Made by a program: the position numbers and the translations under genes. 64,000 nt of DNA from a virus (taxonomy: Duplodnaviria > Caudoviricetes), in the IMG/VR virus record IMGVR_UViG_3300031852_000001, positions 1,107 to 65,106 of that record. One strand, written 5' to 3'. A model generated the notes under the pieces. It was not told the DNA's origin and made no database searches. It saw only the letters and a list, made by a program, of their open reading frames with translations. Of the stretch, positions 48,848 to 63,423 are shown piece by piece. Within the stretch, counting starts at the first letter, position 1. Every line of letters begins with the position of its first letter.

Positions 48848-48906
48848 GGTGACTCCCTGTGTGTGTGTTTGTCTAGGTTCAATATATCGTACTTGACATT
48901 GGTGGC

Positions 48907-48949
48907 AAAGGAAAGGGGAGAGTCGGCGGGCAAGTGCCGACCCTCCCCC
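48907..48949 (-). terminator. Terminator
   Basis: GGGGAGGGTCGGC/GCCGACTCTCCCC then TTTCCTTT. Confidence 0.75.
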
Positions 48950-50874: not shown

Positions 50875-51253
50875 CTGCGTTCTCCACGTAGTAGGAATCT
50901 ATGTTGAGCACCCTACCCTTGCGGTCCATCCACAGCATGACGTCAGCGTTGTAGTCAACGCCCTGCTGCTTGCGAACCACTGCCATCAGGTCATCCTCCG
51001 TGGGGGAGACGTAGACGGCCGGCCGCTGATTCTTGCCGTACTCGAACACCGTGGCCACCCACACCTTGGGCGGCAGCTCGCGGTCAGCCACGGCCGGCAT
51101 GGATGCAACCAGCGCCAGCGTGGCGTGGACCTGAGCCTGAGTGGCCCATGCCAGGCGTGTTGTGGCGTCCGCCGTGTCCGGGTAGTCGCACGCCCCATCC
51201 ACACTCTTGTTGACCAGGCGTTCGGCCTCCCGAACGTGCATTGCGTGTGTCAC
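50867..51253 (-). CDS. Hypothetical protein
   Basis: AQAQVHATLAL phage motif. Confidence 0.65.
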   Translation of the reverse strand: MTHAMHVREAERLVNKSVDGACDYPDTADATTRLAWATQAQVHATLALVASMPAVADRELPPKVWVATVFEYGKNQRPAVYVSPTEDDLMAVVRKQQGVDYNADVMLWMDRKGRVLNIDSYYVENADD

Positions 51254-55384: not shown

Positions 55385-55592
55385 GTCTGTCTATCTCCTG
55401 GGCTTCATACCGCGCCTGCTTCGGGTGCCGTAGCACTGAGACGTAAGCGCGGGTTATGGGATCTGTTGCGATGATTCGGTGCAGCTTTTGGGTACTGAGA
55501 ACATGCTCGATGGCTTGCGTGGCAGTCACGCCCGGTTCATATTCCCGCTGGTCCCGTAGGATCAGCTCTACCGCTACTCGCATGACTGCCAC
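55368..55592 (-). CDS. Hypothetical protein
   Basis: RBS GGAGG. Confidence 0.55.
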   Translation of the reverse strand: MAVMRVAVELILRDQREYEPGVTATQAIEHVLSTQKLHRIIATDPITRAYVSVLRHPKQARYEAQEIDRHENHL

Positions 55593-55608
55593 TGCAAACC
55601 TCCGTTAG

Positions 55609-55624
55609 ATATACGCTTGACGAT
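55609..55624 (-). promoter_or_regulatory. Copy of repeated motif ATCGTCAAGCGTATAT
   Basis: Immediately before GGAGG RBS. Confidence 0.55.
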
Positions 55625-55629
55625 CCAGA

Positions 55630-56043
55630 CTATGCGACCTGCTTGGTGTTCAAGTCCAGGCGGTCCAGCACGGACGGATCCTGCCGCAGCGTGGCGATGG
55701 TGGACTCCCACGCAGCTTCCAGAGCCTTAGCGCTGTAGCGGGGGCAGGGGACGGACTGGAACCGCAGGTTATGGGCGCGGTTCATCGGCTCCCAGCGGCT
55801 CACAGCGAACGCGCTGCCGTCCGGGTTTTCCCGCGCTTCAATGTGGGCGGTGACGCTGAACGCCTTGCCCTCCTTGTAGTGGGACACGGACAGTTCAAGG
55901 TGGATGGTGCTCTTGCCATCCTCGCCGTCGCCCAGCTTGACGGACGCTTCCAGACGGCGGGACGCCTCACCCTTATAGTTGGGCCGGCCTTCCTTCTTGC
56001 CGGTGGCCAGTTCCTCAACGATGGCTGCAAAATCACGGGACAT
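55630..56043 (-). CDS. Hypothetical protein
   Basis: AC-rich leader plus AAGGAG. Confidence 0.65.
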   Translation of the reverse strand: MSRDFAAIVEELATGKKEGRPNYKGEASRRLEASVKLGDGEDGKSTIHLELSVSHYKEGKAFSVTAHIEARENPDGSAFAVSRWEPMNRAHNLRFQSVPCPRYSAKALEAAWESTIATLRQDPSVLDRLDLNTKQVA

Positions 56044-56080
56044 GGTTACTCCTTGTTTGTTTGTTTGTGCTGACCGTATG

Positions 56081-56123
56081 GCCACACCAACCCACGGGAT
56101 GACCCGTGAGTCAGTGAAGCTAG
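56081..56123 (-). other. Conserved intercistronic RNA stem, copy A
   Basis: CUAGCUU-CACUGACUCACGGG/CCCGUGGGUUGGUG-UGGC. Confidence 0.65.
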
Positions 56124-56491
56124 GCGGTGTAGTTGTAAACCCGGAAGGTCACCATGGCACTAACGCCATTGTGCGCTTTGGCCTGATCGTGGTGGAAGAA
56201 CCACACTTTGCCCTCCCGGACCTCATCCGTCAGGGTGAGTGCAGCCTTCTTGATGCTCGGATCGAGTGATCCAGAGTAGGAGACATACCCCTCACCCAAG
56301 TAGTAGGAGCCGTGAGGGAACAGCAGGTCGGAGGTCTGGATCGAGTCGCCCCAATCGTGGGTGAACCGTCGCAACTCAGCCTCGCCGGGGAACCTTACAA
56401 AGTCCCCAACGCGCGGCCCCTCCCGCTTATCCAGCTCGGCCTTTCGGAATGCCAGGATAAATGCGTCCCGCTCATCAAATTCCGGGCTCAT
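56120..56491 (-). CDS. Hypothetical protein
   Basis: GPRVGDFV...SYSGSLDP motif. Confidence 0.65.
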   Translation of the reverse strand: MSPEFDERDAFILAFRKAELDKREGPRVGDFVRFPGEAELRRFTHDWGDSIQTSDLLFPHGSYYLGEGYVSYSGSLDPSIKKAALTLTDEVREGKVWFFHHDQAKAHNGVSAMVTFRVYNYTA

Positions 56492-57135
56492 TTGGTTGCT
56501 CCTTTTGCTTTACGGATGAGTCGCTGCATGTTGTCCAGGACTGTTGCGGGGATTGGTGCCACCAGCCATGCGTTGCCGTACTTGTAGCCCGGTGCAACCT
56601 CGTGGCAGACAACCGTCTCACCCTTGTAGAAGCGCTCCATGGCATCAGCGGGCATGTGGCGGCACCCGGCGTGCATGTCGTTCAGGTGCCACGCCTTCCA
56701 TAGGCGGTGAACATGCTTGATGCCTTCCAGCGTCCAACCCTCGGCCGGCGTGGTGATGTTCAGCAGCTCATCGAGCATCTGCCCCGCGCCGTCCCAGTCA
56801 TCAGACCGCTTGCCCTTGAGCACGGTATGACCGGATGCACTGAAGCGGATCACGGTATCCGTGACATGCTCATGAGTGATAGTCCGCTGCGATGGGTAGG
56901 ACTCACGCTTGGACAGTTCCAAGTGGACATAGACCCGCGTCCCGTTCGCCGTCGTACCCAGCAGGGCATCGGCTTCCATGTCCTGCCACTCGGCAGGTTC
57001 GGTACCCCACCCCTCATCCTTGATGGCGAGGTCAACCGACTTAGTTTGGCTACGGAGAATGTAGGAAAACGCCTGATTCTCAGTGAATGGACCGGCCAGA
57101 AACTCGCCGTCACGAGTCACGTTTACAAAGTTCAT
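56488..57135 (-). CDS. Hypothetical protein
   Basis: WKAWHLNDMHAGC, YKYGNAW motif. Confidence 0.7.
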   Translation of the reverse strand: MNFVNVTRDGEFLAGPFTENQAFSYILRSQTKSVDLAIKDEGWGTEPAEWQDMEADALLGTTANGTRVYVHLELSKRESYPSQRTITHEHVTDTVIRFSASGHTVLKGKRSDDWDGAGQMLDELLNITTPAEGWTLEGIKHVHRLWKAWHLNDMHAGCRHMPADAMERFYKGETVVCHEVAPGYKYGNAWLVAPIPATVLDNMQRLIRKAKGATK

Positions 57136-57172
57136 TGCTACCCCTTGAGGTTGTTTGTGTGTTGATGTAGTT

Positions 57173-57202
57173 ACTCTACTACGTACTTACTTAGTTGGTC
57201 AA
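57173..57202 (-). promoter_or_regulatory. SigA-type promoter
   Basis: TTGACC-18-TAGAGT with AAGTAAGTACGT spacer. Confidence 0.7.
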
Positions 57203-57585
57203 GCCCACTGGACGCCGTAGTACTTGACGTTATGCCCCCGCAGCTCACCCTTGAGTGCATCTTGCATGATGGCATCGGCCCGGTCCAGGTCCGGGGCGTA
57301 CCCATCTATCTCATGCATCTCCCGGCCCCGCTTGATGGTGCCCTTGAATGCCCGGAGCCCTTCCCCTGTGTCAGAGTGCCAGCGGTAGGTACGGATGGCA
57401 CCGCCCACCCATATCTGGCAAGCCTCAGCACCAACCCACCTGAAGCCCTGGGAAAACAGGGCCGATGAGTGATCCAGCACCCGCTGCATCTTGGGCTGGC
57501 CCATATTGCCGCCCGGAATGAGTGCCCAGTAATACCCAGGCTTGGCACCCGTTGCCTTCATGTGATCTGCGAACGTCTCAGTCAC
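57199..57585 (-). CDS. Hypothetical protein
   Basis: Coupled ORF. Confidence 0.6.
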   Translation of the reverse strand: MTETFADHMKATGAKPGYYWALIPGGNMGQPKMQRVLDHSSALFSQGFRWVGAEACQIWVGGAIRTYRWHSDTGEGLRAFKGTIKRGREMHEIDGYAPDLDRADAIMQDALKGELRGHNVKYYGVQWA

Positions 57586-57953
57586 TTTGCAGCCTCCACC
57601 ATGAACACGTTGACCTTGCCGGGGGACAGTGCGGACGGAGCCGTGACGTAACCCGCGCCCAGCTCCACGCCCTCCAGAGCATGGCCCAGGTATGACACCC
57701 GGAAGCCTGACTCCTGCAATTCGGCCGGCACGGATTCAGCGCGGAATGCACCCCATGCCGCCGTACGTTCGATGGGATTGGTGCCGCACACCTTGTTACC
57801 GTGAATCCAGCAATCCCACCCCGGATCATCTTCCTGGATCTGGACCGATGCCACCGGCTGGACCGGCTGGACGTGCTGGACCGGCTCCGGTGCAGCGCAC
57901 CCCATCAGTGCAGCAGCTACAGCGATAACACTTGCAAGTACCTTGAGTTTCAT
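57582..57953 (-). CDS. Small lipoprotein
   Basis: Lipobox LMG-C; EDDPGWDC...GNKVCG motif. Confidence 0.7.
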   Translation of the reverse strand: MKLKVLASVIAVAAALMGCAAPEPVQHVQPVQPVASVQIQEDDPGWDCWIHGNKVCGTNPIERTAAWGAFRAESVPAELQESGFRVSYLGHALEGVELGAGYVTAPSALSPGKVNVFMVEAAK

Positions 57954-57997
57954 TGCATCCCCTTGAGTTTGTGTGTGTGTTTCATGCAGGCCATATA

Positions 57998-58044
57998 GCC
58001 ATACCAACCACCGGACATTGCAGCCCGGTAGCCAGTAAAGCTAG
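57998..58044 (-). other. Conserved intercistronic RNA stem, copy B
   Basis: CUAGCUU-UACUGGCUACCGGGC/GUCCGGUGGUUGGUA-UGGC. Confidence 0.65.
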
Positions 58045-58048
58045 GTGG

Positions 58049-58207
58049 TTAGTTCAAGCTCCCATCCCCGTTGATATCCCCAAAGTCCACGGCATACCGC
58101 CCTACCCAGTACGGATCAGTAGTGCCATAGCTTGACTGGCAATCATCCTCGCCAGCCTCCCGGAGCATTATGTCCCCAAGCTCCACGAATGACTTACCCG
58201 ATGCCAT
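58049..58207 (-). CDS. 52-aa hypothetical protein (not in ORF track)
   Basis: MASGKSFVELGD...; starts 3 nt after clamp stop. Confidence 0.45.
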   Translation of the reverse strand: MASGKSFVELGDIMLREAGEDDCQSSYGTTDPYWVGRYAVDFGDINGDGSLN

Positions 58208-58210
58208 GAC

Positions 58211-59452
58211 CTACGCACCCGGCAGACGTACGGGCATCAGCAGGTGGGAGATATCGGCCTGACCCGCTGCCTCGAACATGGCAGGCTTGGGAGCCGTGGT
58301 GTGGTGGATCTGGACTACCTGCCCTTTCATGTCCTTGAGGATATCGATCAGGTAGTGCGGGTTGAATGCCACGGCAAACCCACGCTGCCCACGTTCGGCG
58401 TGGTACGGCATGAACGCCTGGGCTTGAGCATCCTCACCCGTGCCAGCATCCACCCGCAGTGAGTCAATGCCGTTGTATGTCAGGCGGACCGGAGTGTTAC
58501 GTTCGGCCGTGACTGCCACACTCTGGACATTGGCCAGCAGCAGGTCAGCATCCATTTCAAACACGATGGGCGTGGTGTCCGGGAACAGGCTCCGGATCTT
58601 GGGGTAGTCCCCATCCACGGCCAGCGTACCCAAGCTCACGTCGCCCTGGTGGAAGCTCACACGGTACCCGTAGCCAGCCATGGCCTCATGGAAGTGCAGC
58701 TCAATCCTGCCACCCTTGGGGGACAGGTGACGCTTGAATGCCTTCCACGTCTTGGACCGGACCAGCACGGAGTACTCGCCAGCGTAGTCATGCTCACCAA
58801 GGGGACGCTCGATGAACAACTCAGCCAGAGTCAGCCGGTAGCGGTCAGTTGACAGCAAGGTCATCTCACGCCCCTTGACCTCAATCTTGATGCCGGTCAG
58901 GATCGGCAGGGTGTCATCCGTGGATGCACTAATCATGGCCGAATCCATGCGTCGGATGAACTCGGCAGCATCCACCGCAACCCACGTATCGCACTCCATG
59001 CTGGGCTGGACAGGGTACATTTCATCGTCCATGGGAGCCAAGGTGAACGTGGTTCCGTTGACATTGACCAGCACCTTAGTAGGCTCCAGCTCAAGCCTTT
59101 CCTGGCTAATGGTGACCTGCCATGCATCGCTCACCCGCTTGGTGGCACGCTTGCCCGCCGCAACCAAGATATCCAGCAGCATCTTGTGGTTGACCAGCGT
59201 CGAACGGTTGGCCGAACCGCTGGCACCGCTGACCTCGATCAGGGTTGCAGTCTCATAGTCGAACCGCGACACCGACACTACGCCCAGGGAATCGGCAGCG
59301 ATCTTGACACCTGCCAGCACCGGCACCGGGACGCGGGTAGCAATGCCAGCGCCAGCAGCCTTGACAGCGGCGATCCATGCACCCAGCGAGCCCGTAGCGG
59401 TGAACGTGGTTACTGCTACAGCGGACGGAGTTTCAACGGTGGTTACAGACAT
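58211..59452 (-). CDS. dnaN: DNA polymerase III sliding clamp (beta)
   Basis: ASTDDTLPILTG, TDRYRL, GDYPKIRSLFP, AFNPHYL, LLMPVRLPG. Confidence 0.9.
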   Translation of the reverse strand: MSVTTVETPSAVAVTTFTATGSLGAWIAAVKAAGAGIATRVPVPVLAGVKIAADSLGVVSVSRFDYETATLIEVSGASGSANRSTLVNHKMLLDILVAAGKRATKRVSDAWQVTISQERLELEPTKVLVNVNGTTFTLAPMDDEMYPVQPSMECDTWVAVDAAEFIRRMDSAMISASTDDTLPILTGIKIEVKGREMTLLSTDRYRLTLAELFIERPLGEHDYAGEYSVLVRSKTWKAFKRHLSPKGGRIELHFHEAMAGYGYRVSFHQGDVSLGTLAVDGDYPKIRSLFPDTTPIVFEMDADLLLANVQSVAVTAERNTPVRLTYNGIDSLRVDAGTGEDAQAQAFMPYHAERGQRGFAVAFNPHYLIDILKDMKGQVVQIHHTTAPKPAMFEAAGQADISHLLMPVRLPGA

Positions 59453-59498
59453 GGTTATCTCCTTGAAGATTGTTTGTGTGTTTGTGTTGACTCATCGA

Positions 59499-59540
59499 GC
59501 CATACCGGCCCACGGGTGTCCCGTGGACCAGTAAAGCTAG
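59499..59540 (-). other. Conserved intercistronic RNA stem, copy C
   Basis: CUAGCUU-UACUGGUCCACGGG/CCCGUGGGCCGGUA-UGGC. Confidence 0.65.
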
Positions 59541-59541
59541 A

Positions 59542-59733
59542 TCAGTAGACGTCGTTGAAGCAGTAGGCGTCCAGCACTTCCCCCGTGTCCGGATCCAGCG
59601 TGATCCGCCAATCTGACACATGCTCATCCTTGAAGCTCACCCGGTAGTTGCCACCCTCGATGACCTCGAACGATTCCACGGCATCCGATCCACCGTCTGA
59701 AAAGTACGCTTGCAGTGCTGCCATAAGTTCCAT
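59542..59733 (-). CDS. Hypothetical protein
   Basis: AC-rich leader plus AAGGGG. Confidence 0.6.
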   Translation of the reverse strand: MELMAALQAYFSDGGSDAVESFEVIEGGNYRVSFKDEHVSDWRITLDPDTGEVLDAYCFNDVY

Positions 59734-59771
59734 GCTGACCCCTTGAGGTTGTTTGTTTGTTTGTAGTAGCT

Positions 59772-59800
59772 ACTCTAGTACGTAACTAAGTAACTGTCAA
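59772..59800 (-). promoter_or_regulatory. SigA-type promoter
   Basis: TTGACA-17-TAGAGT. Confidence 0.8.
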
Positions 59801-59983
59801 TTACAGCGATGCGAGATAAGCCATGAACCCATCCCAGTTGGCAACCATCGCCCACACCACGCCCGGTATCGTCAGGATGACACCAGCGGCGCACGTTGCA
59901 TCCAGTTTGGACACCCCTTGCATATCCCGTTCAACCGACACCCGGACCCGTTCAACCCGTTCCCGCAGTTCAAGCAGCATCAT
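59801..59983 (-). CDS. Small membrane protein
   Basis: TGATG coupling; C-terminal TM. Confidence 0.5.
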   Translation of the reverse strand: MMLLELRERVERVRVSVERDMQGVSKLDATCAAGVILTIPGVVWAMVANWDGFMAYLASL

Positions 59984-60540
59984 TACTGACCCACCTGCAT
60001 CCGGCCAGCCTCAGATACGGTCAGGTTGAATACGCCAGCGTAGTACTCGCACTGACCCTGAGTCTCGCCACGGTCCCCAAGCCATGCCACAACCACCTTG
60101 CCATCGCGGCCAGTCTCGTTAGCACGGGACAGGTGGAGCAACTTAGCAGGCTCACCTCGGAAGCTGAGCACAGTATCCCCAATAGCCACCTCACGCTTGC
60201 AATCATCGTGAGCAACCAATGCCGGCTTTGTGGCAGGACGCTTAGCCAGGGTAAGACGCGGTTCCCCGGCCCGGACCAGTCCTGAGGCCTCGATGACCTC
60301 ACTGGCAGACAGTTCCCCGGCATCGATCATTGCCTGACGTTCGGCCGGATCCAGCGACATGATCCATTCGGCATCCTTCCTAGCACGGTAGGCAAACACT
60401 GCCTGGACTTCTTCAAGTGTGGCATGGAAGTACTCATCAGCGGACTCAGAGTAGTAACCATCCGTGCCAGTCATGGCAGCGAGTGCATCATCCGTGAAGC
60501 AAGCGAGTTCTTCAATGCGATCCTGAGAAATTTCTGACAT
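59983..60540 (-). CDS. First early-operon protein, hypothetical
   Basis: GDTVLSFRGE..KLL motif; RBS GGTGG. Confidence 0.6.
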   Translation of the reverse strand: MSEISQDRIEELACFTDDALAAMTGTDGYYSESADEYFHATLEEVQAVFAYRARKDAEWIMSLDPAERQAMIDAGELSASEVIEASGLVRAGEPRLTLAKRPATKPALVAHDDCKREVAIGDTVLSFRGEPAKLLHLSRANETGRDGKVVVAWLGDRGETQGQCEYYAGVFNLTVSEAGRMQVGQ

Positions 60541-60639
60541 GGTAACCACCATTCCCTTGAGTTTGTGTGTTTGTGTTGAATCCATAGATTCAAGGAAGCT
60601 CATGCTATCTGCCGTCCAGCCATTACTGGCCACTAATCG

Positions 60640-61275
60640 ATGGAACCTAATCCATATACAGACACCATGAGCAACCTAAATGCTATGCGTTCATTGTTTG
60701 TTTGTTTGCGGATACTGTCACTATCCAATTTTCAGAGTACCAACGCGCCTCGGAGGGCTTTTGCGTCTGGCTTTTATCCAGTAGGCAGTATTGTTCGCTA
60801 CGCAACTTACCTACATCAGAGATTCCACCTAGGGATTCTCTACTCTGGCTCTCTCGTTCCCATGCCGTTGCCTAACGCTTGCACTCACAGATCCGCTACA
60901 GACTTGCTATCCGGGCAGCTACGTCGTTTATCTAGGGGAATACTTTCACGCTACTAGCACTAGCCAGCGGGAGCCTGTATCGATAGTTCAGCTTACGAGG
61001 GTATCCCCGTATGGAAGCACCTAGCTATCACTCCTGTATCCCCCATGTATCACTTGGGGAGCCTTATTCAATTCTCAAACAACATGCGATTGAAGGAAAG
61101 TTTACCTAGCGATCAATCCCAGAGATACCCCCGGCCCAGATCATTGCTAGTACACCTACCCAACTACGCCCTACTTTTGTTCTGCTATTGGGACAGACAC
61201 CCTACCGTTCGGTAGCCCGCTAATCTGAGGCTCATAGCTGCCGTAAAAAACTTTTGGTTCCCGTGAGAACCGGTG
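60640..61275 (-). ncRNA. Candidate long structured leader / ncRNA
   Basis: No convincing ORF; several long stems with G-U pairs on minus strand. Confidence 0.45.
61064..61084 (-). promoter_or_regulatory. rrn boxA-like sequence
   Basis: TGTTGTTTGAGAATTGAATAA vs actinobacterial rrn leader TGTTGTTTGAGAACTCAATAG (recalled). Confidence 0.55.
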
Positions 61276-61280
61276 TTGCT

Positions 61281-61320
61281 GTTACTACTGTACCACACTT
61301 ACTGAACTACTTACTTACTT
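61281..61320 (-). promoter_or_regulatory. Early promoter P1 (extended -10)
   Basis: TGTGG-TACAGT; upstream (AAGT)3; 20-bp identity with P2. Confidence 0.65.
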
Positions 61321-61455
61321 AGCTAGACTGGCCAGAACTCCAACGTAGGGTTGGTAGTTTAGTCTCATGCAGCAGCTTCCCGTAGGTTGCCGGAGCATCC
61401 ACCCCTTGCAGGGTGGGATCTGTGAGCCCTGCCGGATATCCGGCCTGTCTTGCTG

Positions 61456-61490
61456 GTTACTACTGTACCACACTTGCTACTTACTTACTT
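61456..61490 (-). promoter_or_regulatory. Early promoter P2 (extended -10)
   Basis: Same 20-bp core and (AAGT)3. Confidence 0.65.
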
Positions 61491-61886
61491 ACCGGTTTAG
61501 CGGGGTCTTTCCACCGTTTGCCGCCTGCTGCCCTGTAGGTCTATGAGGTCTGGCTTTATGAGTGGCGAGTGCCGCCTGTACCGATATGACTAGCTTAGCA
61601 CTTACTTAGCTACTTACCTAATCGGCTGGCCTGCCCTGTCCTAGCGGCTGGCCTGTCCGGCCGGTCCTGCTGGCCTGACATCAACTAATCTACGCCGATG
61701 CTAAGTTACTCTCCAGTAGGTTACGTTTTATTACGTAACTACTCCACTACGTAGTTAGTCCTTAGCTCTAACGCATGTAGCGCGCGATCTTAGTGCATGG
61801 ATATGGATTGTGTCAAGCCCATGCATGGTTATGCATACCAATGCATAAGTATTCGGCCGGCATTGATCCTACTTGACAGTAACAAG

Positions 61887-61950
61887 GGTGGGGGGGTATA
61901 ACCCCGCGCGCGCACGCTGGCCCCCCGGTGGTTGTTAGCACCCCCCATCG
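61887..61950. other. Candidate cos region / physical genome end
   Basis: G7 and C6 runs flanking CGGTGGTTGTT; transcription diverges here. Confidence 0.4.
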
Positions 61951-62907: not shown

Positions 62908-62980
62908 GTTGAGGTAGCTCAGTTGGTAGAGCAGCGGTCTCCAAAACCGCAGGTCGTAGGTTCGAGCCCTGCCCGCAGCG
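62908..62980 (+). tRNA. tRNA-Trp(CCA)
   Basis: Cloverleaf; GCGGT-CT CCA AA-ACCGC; TTCGA loop; no encoded CCA. Confidence 0.9.
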
Positions 62981-63222
62981 CGAAGGTTGAGTTTGCACAA
63001 TCAGCCGAACATGGTTTAGTGTATATATCGCTGGTCCTTATCAGGGAGTCCTCCAAAACGCTCCCGTCATCTTCTATCAATTTACCTACTAAACAATTGT
63101 TTGACGCGGGGGGACCAGTACATTAGTTCGAAGCTAATAGAGGTGGGGAGTAGTTACCCCGAATGCAATAAGCAACAAGGTCACTAGGAACTGAGACGCC
63201 TGGTGGCCTTTGTTGTATCCAA

Positions 63223-63296
63223 GCCCCCTTAGCTCATCATGGCAGAGCGCCGATCTTGTAAATCGGAAGTGACTGGTTCGACACCAGTAGGCGGCA
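63223..63296 (+). tRNA. tRNA-Thr(TGT)
   Basis: CCGAT-CT TGT AA-ATCGG; TTCGA loop. Confidence 0.9.
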
Positions 63297-63345
63297 CTCG
63301 GGCGGGAGGTATCCAGATAGAAACGGTACGTCCCGCCCGGATCAA

Positions 63346-63418
63346 TCGTTACTAGCTCAATCGGCAGAGCACGCGACTGTTAATCGCGCGGTTCCTGGTT
63401 CAAGTCCAGGGTGGCGAG
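63346..63418 (+). tRNA. tRNA-Asn(GTT)
   Basis: CGCGA-CT GTT AA-TCGCG; TTCAA loop. Confidence 0.92.
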
Positions 63419-63423
63419 CAAAC

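Follow-up and report, generated by a model that had tools for sequence, protein, structure and literature searches.

Antitermination of the rrn type acts mainly against Rho rather than against terminators of every kind. In rrn operons, boxA is reported to be both essential for the antitermination complex and sufficient to trigger its assembly, and this complex blocks Rho (PMC13753749). The actinobacterial rrn nut-like site consists of boxA and an overlapping boxC, and its M. tuberculosis form is the target of NusB/NusE and NusA. A passage of one report describes the binding of M. tuberculosis NusA to the boxC segment, with AUA as the critical part (PMC2724277). In phage T7, boxA mutations downstream of the early promoters have a genetic phenotype, and a passage of PMC3709561 citing Savalia 2010 attributes it to boxA-antiterminated host transcription. 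In phage lambda, nutL and nutR carry a weakened boxA, which recruits NusB-S10 to modify host RNA polymerase, and N on the boxB hairpin is required. The Pleft leaders of the Cluster A mycobacteriophages L5, D29, and StarStuff have been described without mention of Nus or boxA (PMC5712189). In cellular genes, the boxA of the suhB leader and of gamma-proteobacterial CRISPR array leaders precedes un- or poorly translated RNA and controls Rho-dependent termination. Thus, phage-borne rrn-type boxA is already known from T7 and, in another form, from lambdoid nut sites, while actinophage cases appear to be unreported; no report linking boxA or Nus factors to actinophages was found in the full-text literature searched.

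In this study, we analysed a boxA-like site in an uncultured soil phage recorded in rhizosphere metagenomes. The window, meaning the whole stretch of DNA analysed, is 64,000 nt long and comprises bases 1107-65106 of a 65,106-bp IMG/VR record with direct terminal repeats. The site resembles that of T7 in having a virulent-style early leader, expected to be read by host RNA polymerase, and a host rrn-type boxA after strong promoters (A1-A3 in T7, predicted ones in the window), probably with no boxB or N needed. However, the boxA consensus (the GCUCUUUAACAA type) and the host of T7 are proteobacterial, T7 changes to its own RNA polymerase, and its promoters are tandem, whereas the tandem promoters of the window are only candidates. 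As in lambda, a phage-borne boxA would recruit NusB-S10 to modify host RNA polymerase, but the boxA of the window is not weakened relative to rrn, and neither a clear boxB hairpin nor, in family searches of the early ORFs, an N-like protein was recognised. The Cluster A Pleft leaders are similar in lying at the right genome end, with tandem strong early promoters (candidates in the window) and ~500 nt of non-coding sequence before the first leftward gene, and the Cluster A phage Scherzo has the motif. They differ in that L5 and D29 lack a recognisable boxA and that RNA abundance, stability, and toxicity were measured in Cluster A. The suhB and CRISPR boxA sites belong to cellular genes of another phylum with another consensus, and the outcome at suhB is repression.

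The boxA-like motif and its setting

The window has the gene order of a siphovirus of actinobacteria. Plus-strand structural genes at ~1 to 25 kb are followed by an Amidase_2+LysM endolysin and then by a long leftward block, which starts near 61.8 kb and holds genes of replication and nucleotide metabolism (a clamp, a DnaB-like helicase, Toprim, YqaJ, and the RNR small chain). The GC content of 56-61% falls to 53% at 60-62 kb. The terminase is nearest to that of the Streptomyces Lika-group phages (53% identity), and the sliding clamp is closest to those of Arthrobacter phages. Since no LysB was seen among the window genes, the host may not be Mycobacterium. Three tRNA genes (Trp-CCA, Thr-TGT, and Asn-GTT) lie on the plus strand at 62908-63419, beyond the early promoter and opposite to the leftward block. 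A sliding-clamp protein scan of IMG/VR revealed no relatives of this phage, and a repeat-word scan matched only unrelated low-GC contigs. The contigs of four rhizosphere DNA runs yielded only short identical fragments, which offered no population variation.

The first early ORF (59983-60543, minus strand) encodes 186 aa with no family match. It is preceded by an untranslated early leader of 1243 nt (60544-61786, minus strand), which occupies the interval between the predicted promoter and the start codon of this ORF and contains 91 stops in three frames, the longest open frame being 63 codons. The leader matched no Rfam family, whether gathering or E-value thresholds were applied, and held no tRNA-like gene; a blastn comparison with 50,697 phage records was likewise without a match.

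Within this leader, the 21-mer TGTTGTTTGAGAATTGAATAA is located at 61064-61084 on the minus strand, and the start codon of the first early ORF follows 541 nt after its first base. The 21-mer had been reported by a first-pass annotation of the DNA, and it proved to be exact and unique, being the sole match in the window at three or fewer mismatches; none of 100 dinucleotide shuffles of the window gave any such match to the 21-mer. It is composed of boxA, UGUUGUUUGAGAA (61072-61084), which equals the rrn-leader boxA of many Mycobacteriaceae-type genomes, and an overlapping boxC-like half, GAAUUGAAUAA (61064-61074), the rrn form of which is GAACUCAAUAG/GAACUCAACAG. The exact 13-nt boxA also occurs only once in the window, and the chance expectation for a 13-mer in 128 kb is ~0.002.

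The first-pass annotation had also given TGTTGTTTGAGAACTCAATAG as the boxA of mycobacterial rrn leaders. This motif is real, and in the genomes of several actinobacteria it was found 180-285 nt upstream of the 16S 5' end. Thirty distinct actinobacterial rrn leaders carried TGTT[G/C/T]TTTGAGAACTC[A/G]A[C/T]AG-TGTG at 135-360 nt before 16S; G2, T4, T7-T15, A18, A20, and G21 were invariant in these segments, and C16 was near-invariant. Within the family that includes Gordonia, almost every rrn leader for which sufficient upstream sequence was available had TGTT[G/C/T]TTTGAGAACT[C/T][A/G]A[C/T]AG followed by TGTG. In a class-level sample of 151 actinobacterial genomes, GTTTGAGAACTCAA[T/C]AG was present in 14, compared with 0 for the reversed control, and the loci retrieved were mostly 135-210 nt upstream of the 16S 5' end or off the contig end.

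Compared with the rrn motif, the phage motif matched at 18 of 21 positions. Alignment with actinobacterial rrn leaders gave identity at all of positions 1-13 (TGTTGTTTGAGAA), with the invariant G2, T4, and T7-A13 all kept, although this actinobacterial consensus may not be that of the phage's own host. In contrast, the boxC/NusA-site half departed from rrn by C14>T and G21>A in invariant columns and by C16>G in the near-invariant one, and the trailing TGTG was absent. Reading the whole 21-mer as boxA, as was originally done, is therefore correct for the first 13 nt, while the rest overlaps the boxC/NusA site and differs at rrn-invariant positions. The NusA KH-domain site (GAACUCAAUAG) has invariant C14, U15, A18, A20, and G21, and the window's GAAUUGAAUAA falls outside this definition. 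The boxC-like half retained AAUA of the rrn NusA-binding segment, and since AUA is kept despite the changes in boxC, NusA may still bind. We constructed R1, a sequence-only model made from the 30 rrn segments with no phage sequences. The best match of R1 in the window was 61072-61087, with a modest score (12.8 bits, E 0.009), and it covers the boxA half only because of the boxC changes and the missing TGTG.

The window site and the rrn nut-like site are both on the sense strand of untranslated RNA downstream of a strong promoter, which in the window is a predicted one. However, the window site is not upstream of rRNA. Capture of an rrn fragment was rejected, as the likeness to rrn leaders stops at 13 nt; an end of homology at this point argues for a selected short signal rather than a captured piece of rrn. 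In bacterial genomes, the exact window variant gave scattered chance matches and a repeat element of Gordonia phosphorivorans, and these were not rrn. Judged by its sequence, the motif reproduces the actinobacterial rrn boxA by more than chance, and it does so on the sense strand of the untranslated early leader.

Promoters, terminators, and RNA structure of the leader

The only consensus promoter predicted upstream of the motif is sigma70-like (TTGACA-18-TAAGAT; 61787-61816, minus strand). It lies 702 nt from the motif and resembles internal promoters predicted at 59800-59772 and 57202-57173. Two ~40-nt direct repeats without a -35 are located ~200 and ~375 nt upstream of the motif. Both the proximal copy (61281-61321, minus strand) and the distal copy, UAAGUAAGUAAGUAG ... 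AAGUGUGGUACAGUAGUAAC (61456-61491, minus strand), contain the extended -10-like TGGTACAGT, which is also found in Scherzo promoters, and they are candidate promoters. The first-pass annotation had placed tandem early promoters ~200 nt before the motif; its P1 is probably the proximal repeat and its upstream promoter the distal one. This claim did not hold as stated, and tandem promoters in the window, made up of the two TGGTACAGT repeats and the one consensus promoter, are a possibility raised by the sequence. Directly after the proximal repeat, and thus between the consensus promoter and boxA, there is a terminator-like hairpin followed by the U-run AAAAGUUUUUU (61271-61256, minus strand).

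Several other elements were observed around these promoters. A palindrome with three ATGCAT words (ATGCATTGGTATGCATAACCATGCAT, minus strand) at 61821-61846 immediately precedes the -35 element of this promoter and is operator-like. Two 22-nt arms at 60649-60670 and 61788-61809, 1117 nt apart with a AATCCATAT core, are 77% complementary; one is within the early promoter spacer, the second lies shortly ahead of the first early gene, and they may be paired operators. A leader helix formed by these arms is unlikely because the 5' arm is upstream of the predicted start. Words of the TAAGTAAGTAAGTAG type, with stops in three frames ("ACTT boxes"), occur at 61302-61321, 61472-61491, 61589-61620, and 60802-60813.

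The first-pass annotation had proposed that tandem promoters, boxA, and long processing stems make the early operon imitate an rRNA operon, which would use host antitermination to read through many terminators. On the early strand, we found 12 terminator-like sites against 12.3 expected from shuffles, so that terminators were not enriched. No rut-like C>G stretch was present in the leader RNA, which is G-rich, and a third internal promoter was predicted at 48908, in addition to those at 59800 and 57202. Internal promoters lessen the need for one long read-through transcript. Taken together, terminators at the shuffle level, the lack of a rut-like stretch, and internal promoters mean that a need for antitermination is not evident from the sequence. 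An inverted-repeat search of 55500-61900 gave no convincing pair involving 60950-61064, the region after boxA, and the long processing stems were thus not recovered as a leader-trailer helix. The idea of rRNA-operon imitation is partly supported, by boxA in a sense-strand untranslated leader and by the tandem promoters of Scherzo, Lika, and CosmicSans, but not by a processing helix in the window.

The only strong terminator-like hairpin of the early region (48914-48949, minus strand; 14 bp, 10 of them GC) is immediately followed by a promoter-like TTGCCA-16-TATATT (48881-48908). The two probably mark where one early transcription unit ends and another begins.

The 321 nt around the motif folded no better than shuffles (z -0.1), and the unpaired probability of the motif was only marginally above that of its flanks in seven phages. 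The stems near boxA were a weak A/U-rich one of 6 bp upstream, closing a 19-nt loop, and a short GC-rich hairpin of 5 bp (UCCCC ... GGGGA; 61039-61060, minus strand), which starts 4 nt after the motif and appears in the MFE fold. The early ORFs without family match revealed no N-like protein in searches that are blind to small ARM proteins.

Occurrence of the motif in other actinophages

BLAST against cultured phages placed TGGTCTTTGAGAATTGAATAA, the window's own variant (ATTGAATAA), in 38 Rhodococcus cluster CA phages. In these phages the motif shares its strand with the leftward early genes and is in unannotated DNA, the right genome end being ~1.15 kb away. The ATTGAATA variant was found in Rhodococcus CA phages, in several IMG/VR lineages, and in Gordonia repeat elements. 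BLAST with a 30-nt rrn segment matched 103 Streptomyces and 27 Mycobacterium phage records as well as the Gordonia phage Bantam. Among the matches listed, every actinophage row was on the early-gene strand, and, except in Zuko and Sujidade, nearly all lay 0.7-1.5 kb from the right end in DNA without annotation. Positions 5 and 19 of the motif are variable; in the small number of cases seen, Mycobacterium phages had ATAG and Streptomyces phages had ACAG.

Six cultured phages were compared closely, namely Lika and FlowerPower of Streptomyces, Bongo and Scherzo of Mycobacterium, Bantam of Gordonia, and CosmicSans of Rhodococcus. In each, the motif is on the sense strand in non-coding DNA, between strong promoters and the first annotated early gene, which begins 142-502 nt further on. 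The distance to tandem TTGACA promoters is 33-81 nt in three of them (Scherzo, Lika, and CosmicSans). The TTGACAC-type promoters of Scherzo form a tandem of five, the last being 33 nt ahead of the motif, and Lika has two with the motif 78 nt past the second. CosmicSans has three tandem promoters upstream of the motif and two copies of it, the downstream one 81 nt after a TTGACAAC...TAAGGT promoter and the upstream one ~30 nt after its own promoter. In five Lika-group leaders with a mean identity of 63%, the only long invariant blocks were the promoter and TTGAGAACTCAACAGTG. The R1 scores were 29.8 bits in both FlowerPower and Bantam, 28.2 in Scherzo, 23.4 in Bongo, 19.4 in Lika, and 7-10 in CosmicSans, and the window site scored far below most cultured actinophages. 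L5 and D29 have a similar leader with no recognisable motif, so that leaders of this kind do not strictly need boxA.

Two further observations were made in these leaders. In the Lika group, a partial second boxC-like word, AACTCAACAGCGGG, is located just upstream of the first tandem promoter and is kept in four of five phages (alignment 395-420). In the right-end leaders of Cluster A, tRNA T-arm-like words are present, namely GGGTTCGAATCCC and GGTTTGATTCC in Scherzo (1290-1470 of the excerpt) and GGGTTCGATTCCCGA in L5 (record coordinates about 51140-51160). As this region is reported to give abundant stable small RNAs, the words are possible tRNA-like processing modules.

In IMG/VR, GTTTGAGAAYTSAAYAG was found in 116 loci, 58 of which had a GC of at least 0.52 and fell into 20 flank clusters. 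In ~16 of these 20 high-GC clusters, the motif was non-coding and on the sense strand. The reversed control pattern gave 27 loci, only one of them high-GC. Low-GC matches fell within long ORFs and were dismissed as chance occurrences in coding sequence. These results suggest that the window site, as far as its sequence can tell, ranks among the weaker members of an apparently large and unreported actinophage set.

The repeat element of Gordonia phosphorivorans is a non-rrn element present in at least 10 copies (12 loci retrieved minus two rrn leaders). Its order is a hairpin (CGGGAGCGGTTCCCG), GATG, the boxA/boxC-like TGTTGTTTGA[G/A]AATT[G/T][A/C]ATAG-TGTG, and GC-rich hairpins. At least six copies are located 30-155 nt past the stop of a DUF222+HNH (REP13E12-like) gene, and others precede clpC-like or comM-like genes. 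The repeat may be a mobile element with its own Nus-type signal.

Possible roles of the site and their meaning

From the motif itself, from its recurrence in other actinophages, which weighs most, and by analogy with the described systems, we consider that the window site is a cis-acting, host-type Nus-factor loading site with an antiterminating role, with a probability of roughly 55%. We infer its transcription, its binding of Nus factors, and its antitermination effect as follows. The boxA would be transcribed within the long untranslated early leader and would bind host NusB-NusE(S10), perhaps together with NusA on the adjoining boxC-like bases. Host RNA polymerase would then be turned into an rrn-type, Rho-resistant, processive elongation complex, which would need no N-like protein of the phage to traverse the early genes and the untranslated RNA, of at least 540 nt, ahead of them. 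The distance of the consensus promoter and the terminator-like hairpin in between speak against this reading, as do the boxC changes with the resulting low R1 score, the lack of an evident need for antitermination, and the similar leaders of L5 and D29 that have no motif.

It is also conceivable, but distinctly unlikely, that an abundant stable leader RNA titrates NusB-S10/NusA away from host rrn operons, lowering host rRNA synthesis instead of or besides aiding phage transcription. The right-end leader of Cluster A indeed gives a very abundant, stable, processed, and host-toxic non-coding RNA with an unexplained function (PMC5712189), and in Scherzo, which belongs to this cluster, the motif lies 33 nt after the last of the five tandem promoters. 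However, abundance and toxicity were measured in L5 and D29, where no motif is recognisable, so the toxicity does not need it, and a single copy per transcript would demand very high RNA levels.

Similarly doubtful is a role in which a boxA-tethered Nus complex chaperones the folding of the leader and its nuclease processing into stable small RNAs, with antitermination being secondary. Passages of two reports describe the rrn complex as an RNA chaperone in addition to an anti-Rho device (PMC10250234, PMC6614801). Cluster A leaders are processed to several small RNAs (PMC5712189), and the T-arm-like words of Scherzo and L5 would fit such processing. The window leader offers little of this kind, as no long-range helix joins the region after boxA to a downstream trailer, the surroundings of the motif fold at the level of shuffles, and neither an Rfam family nor a tRNA-like gene is present.

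The motif could instead merely resemble boxA, being either a DNA operator bound by a regulator of the phage or the host or a target of a non-Nus RNA-binding factor. The rrn form does hold an inverted repeat, TTGAG-AA-CTCAA, and there are other operator-like repeats at the window leader, such as the ATGCAT x3 at 61821-61846 and the AAGT boxes. The inverted repeat is, however, destroyed in the window variant, the identity is to a sequence with an established rrn role, and the motif keeps strictly to one strand relative to the downstream genes in all actinophage rows examined, which points to RNA. We regard this explanation as very unlikely. A chance resemblance with no function in the window phage is the least credible of all, for although the boxC half has degenerated from the rrn form, the E from the rrn model is only ~0.01, and some 13-mer matches are expected across many windows scanned, the ~0.002 expected per window holds before a non-coding early leader and the sense strand are required, and the motif recurs independently at a homologous genome position in many actinophages, is conserved within the Lika group, and has an identical variant in Rhodococcus phages.

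If the Nus-loading site works as proposed, it would explain how host RNA polymerase transcribes untranslated leaders of 0.5-1.2 kb and would open the unexplained early RNAs of mycobacteriophages, which are abundant and toxic, to experimental tests. Stronger versions of the element occur in tractable cultured phages (Scherzo, Lika, FlowerPower, and CosmicSans), which makes direct bench testing possible. A working element would be relevant to engineered therapeutic or reporter mycobacteriophages and to actinobacterial expression systems, in which a portable anti-Rho element of 13-21 nt would be useful.

A wider proposal, which we hold to be unlikely, is that the rrn-like boxA/boxC is an unrecognised shared early-leader module of actinophages, through which an abundant leader both escapes Rho and sequesters NusB/S10/NusA. 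If true, such a sequestering module would explain in concrete terms how the toxic right-end RNAs of mycobacteriophages act. The module would span phages of Streptomyces, Mycobacterium, Gordonia, and Rhodococcus together with many uncultured phages, whose first transcripts would be dressed as 'ribosomal RNA'.
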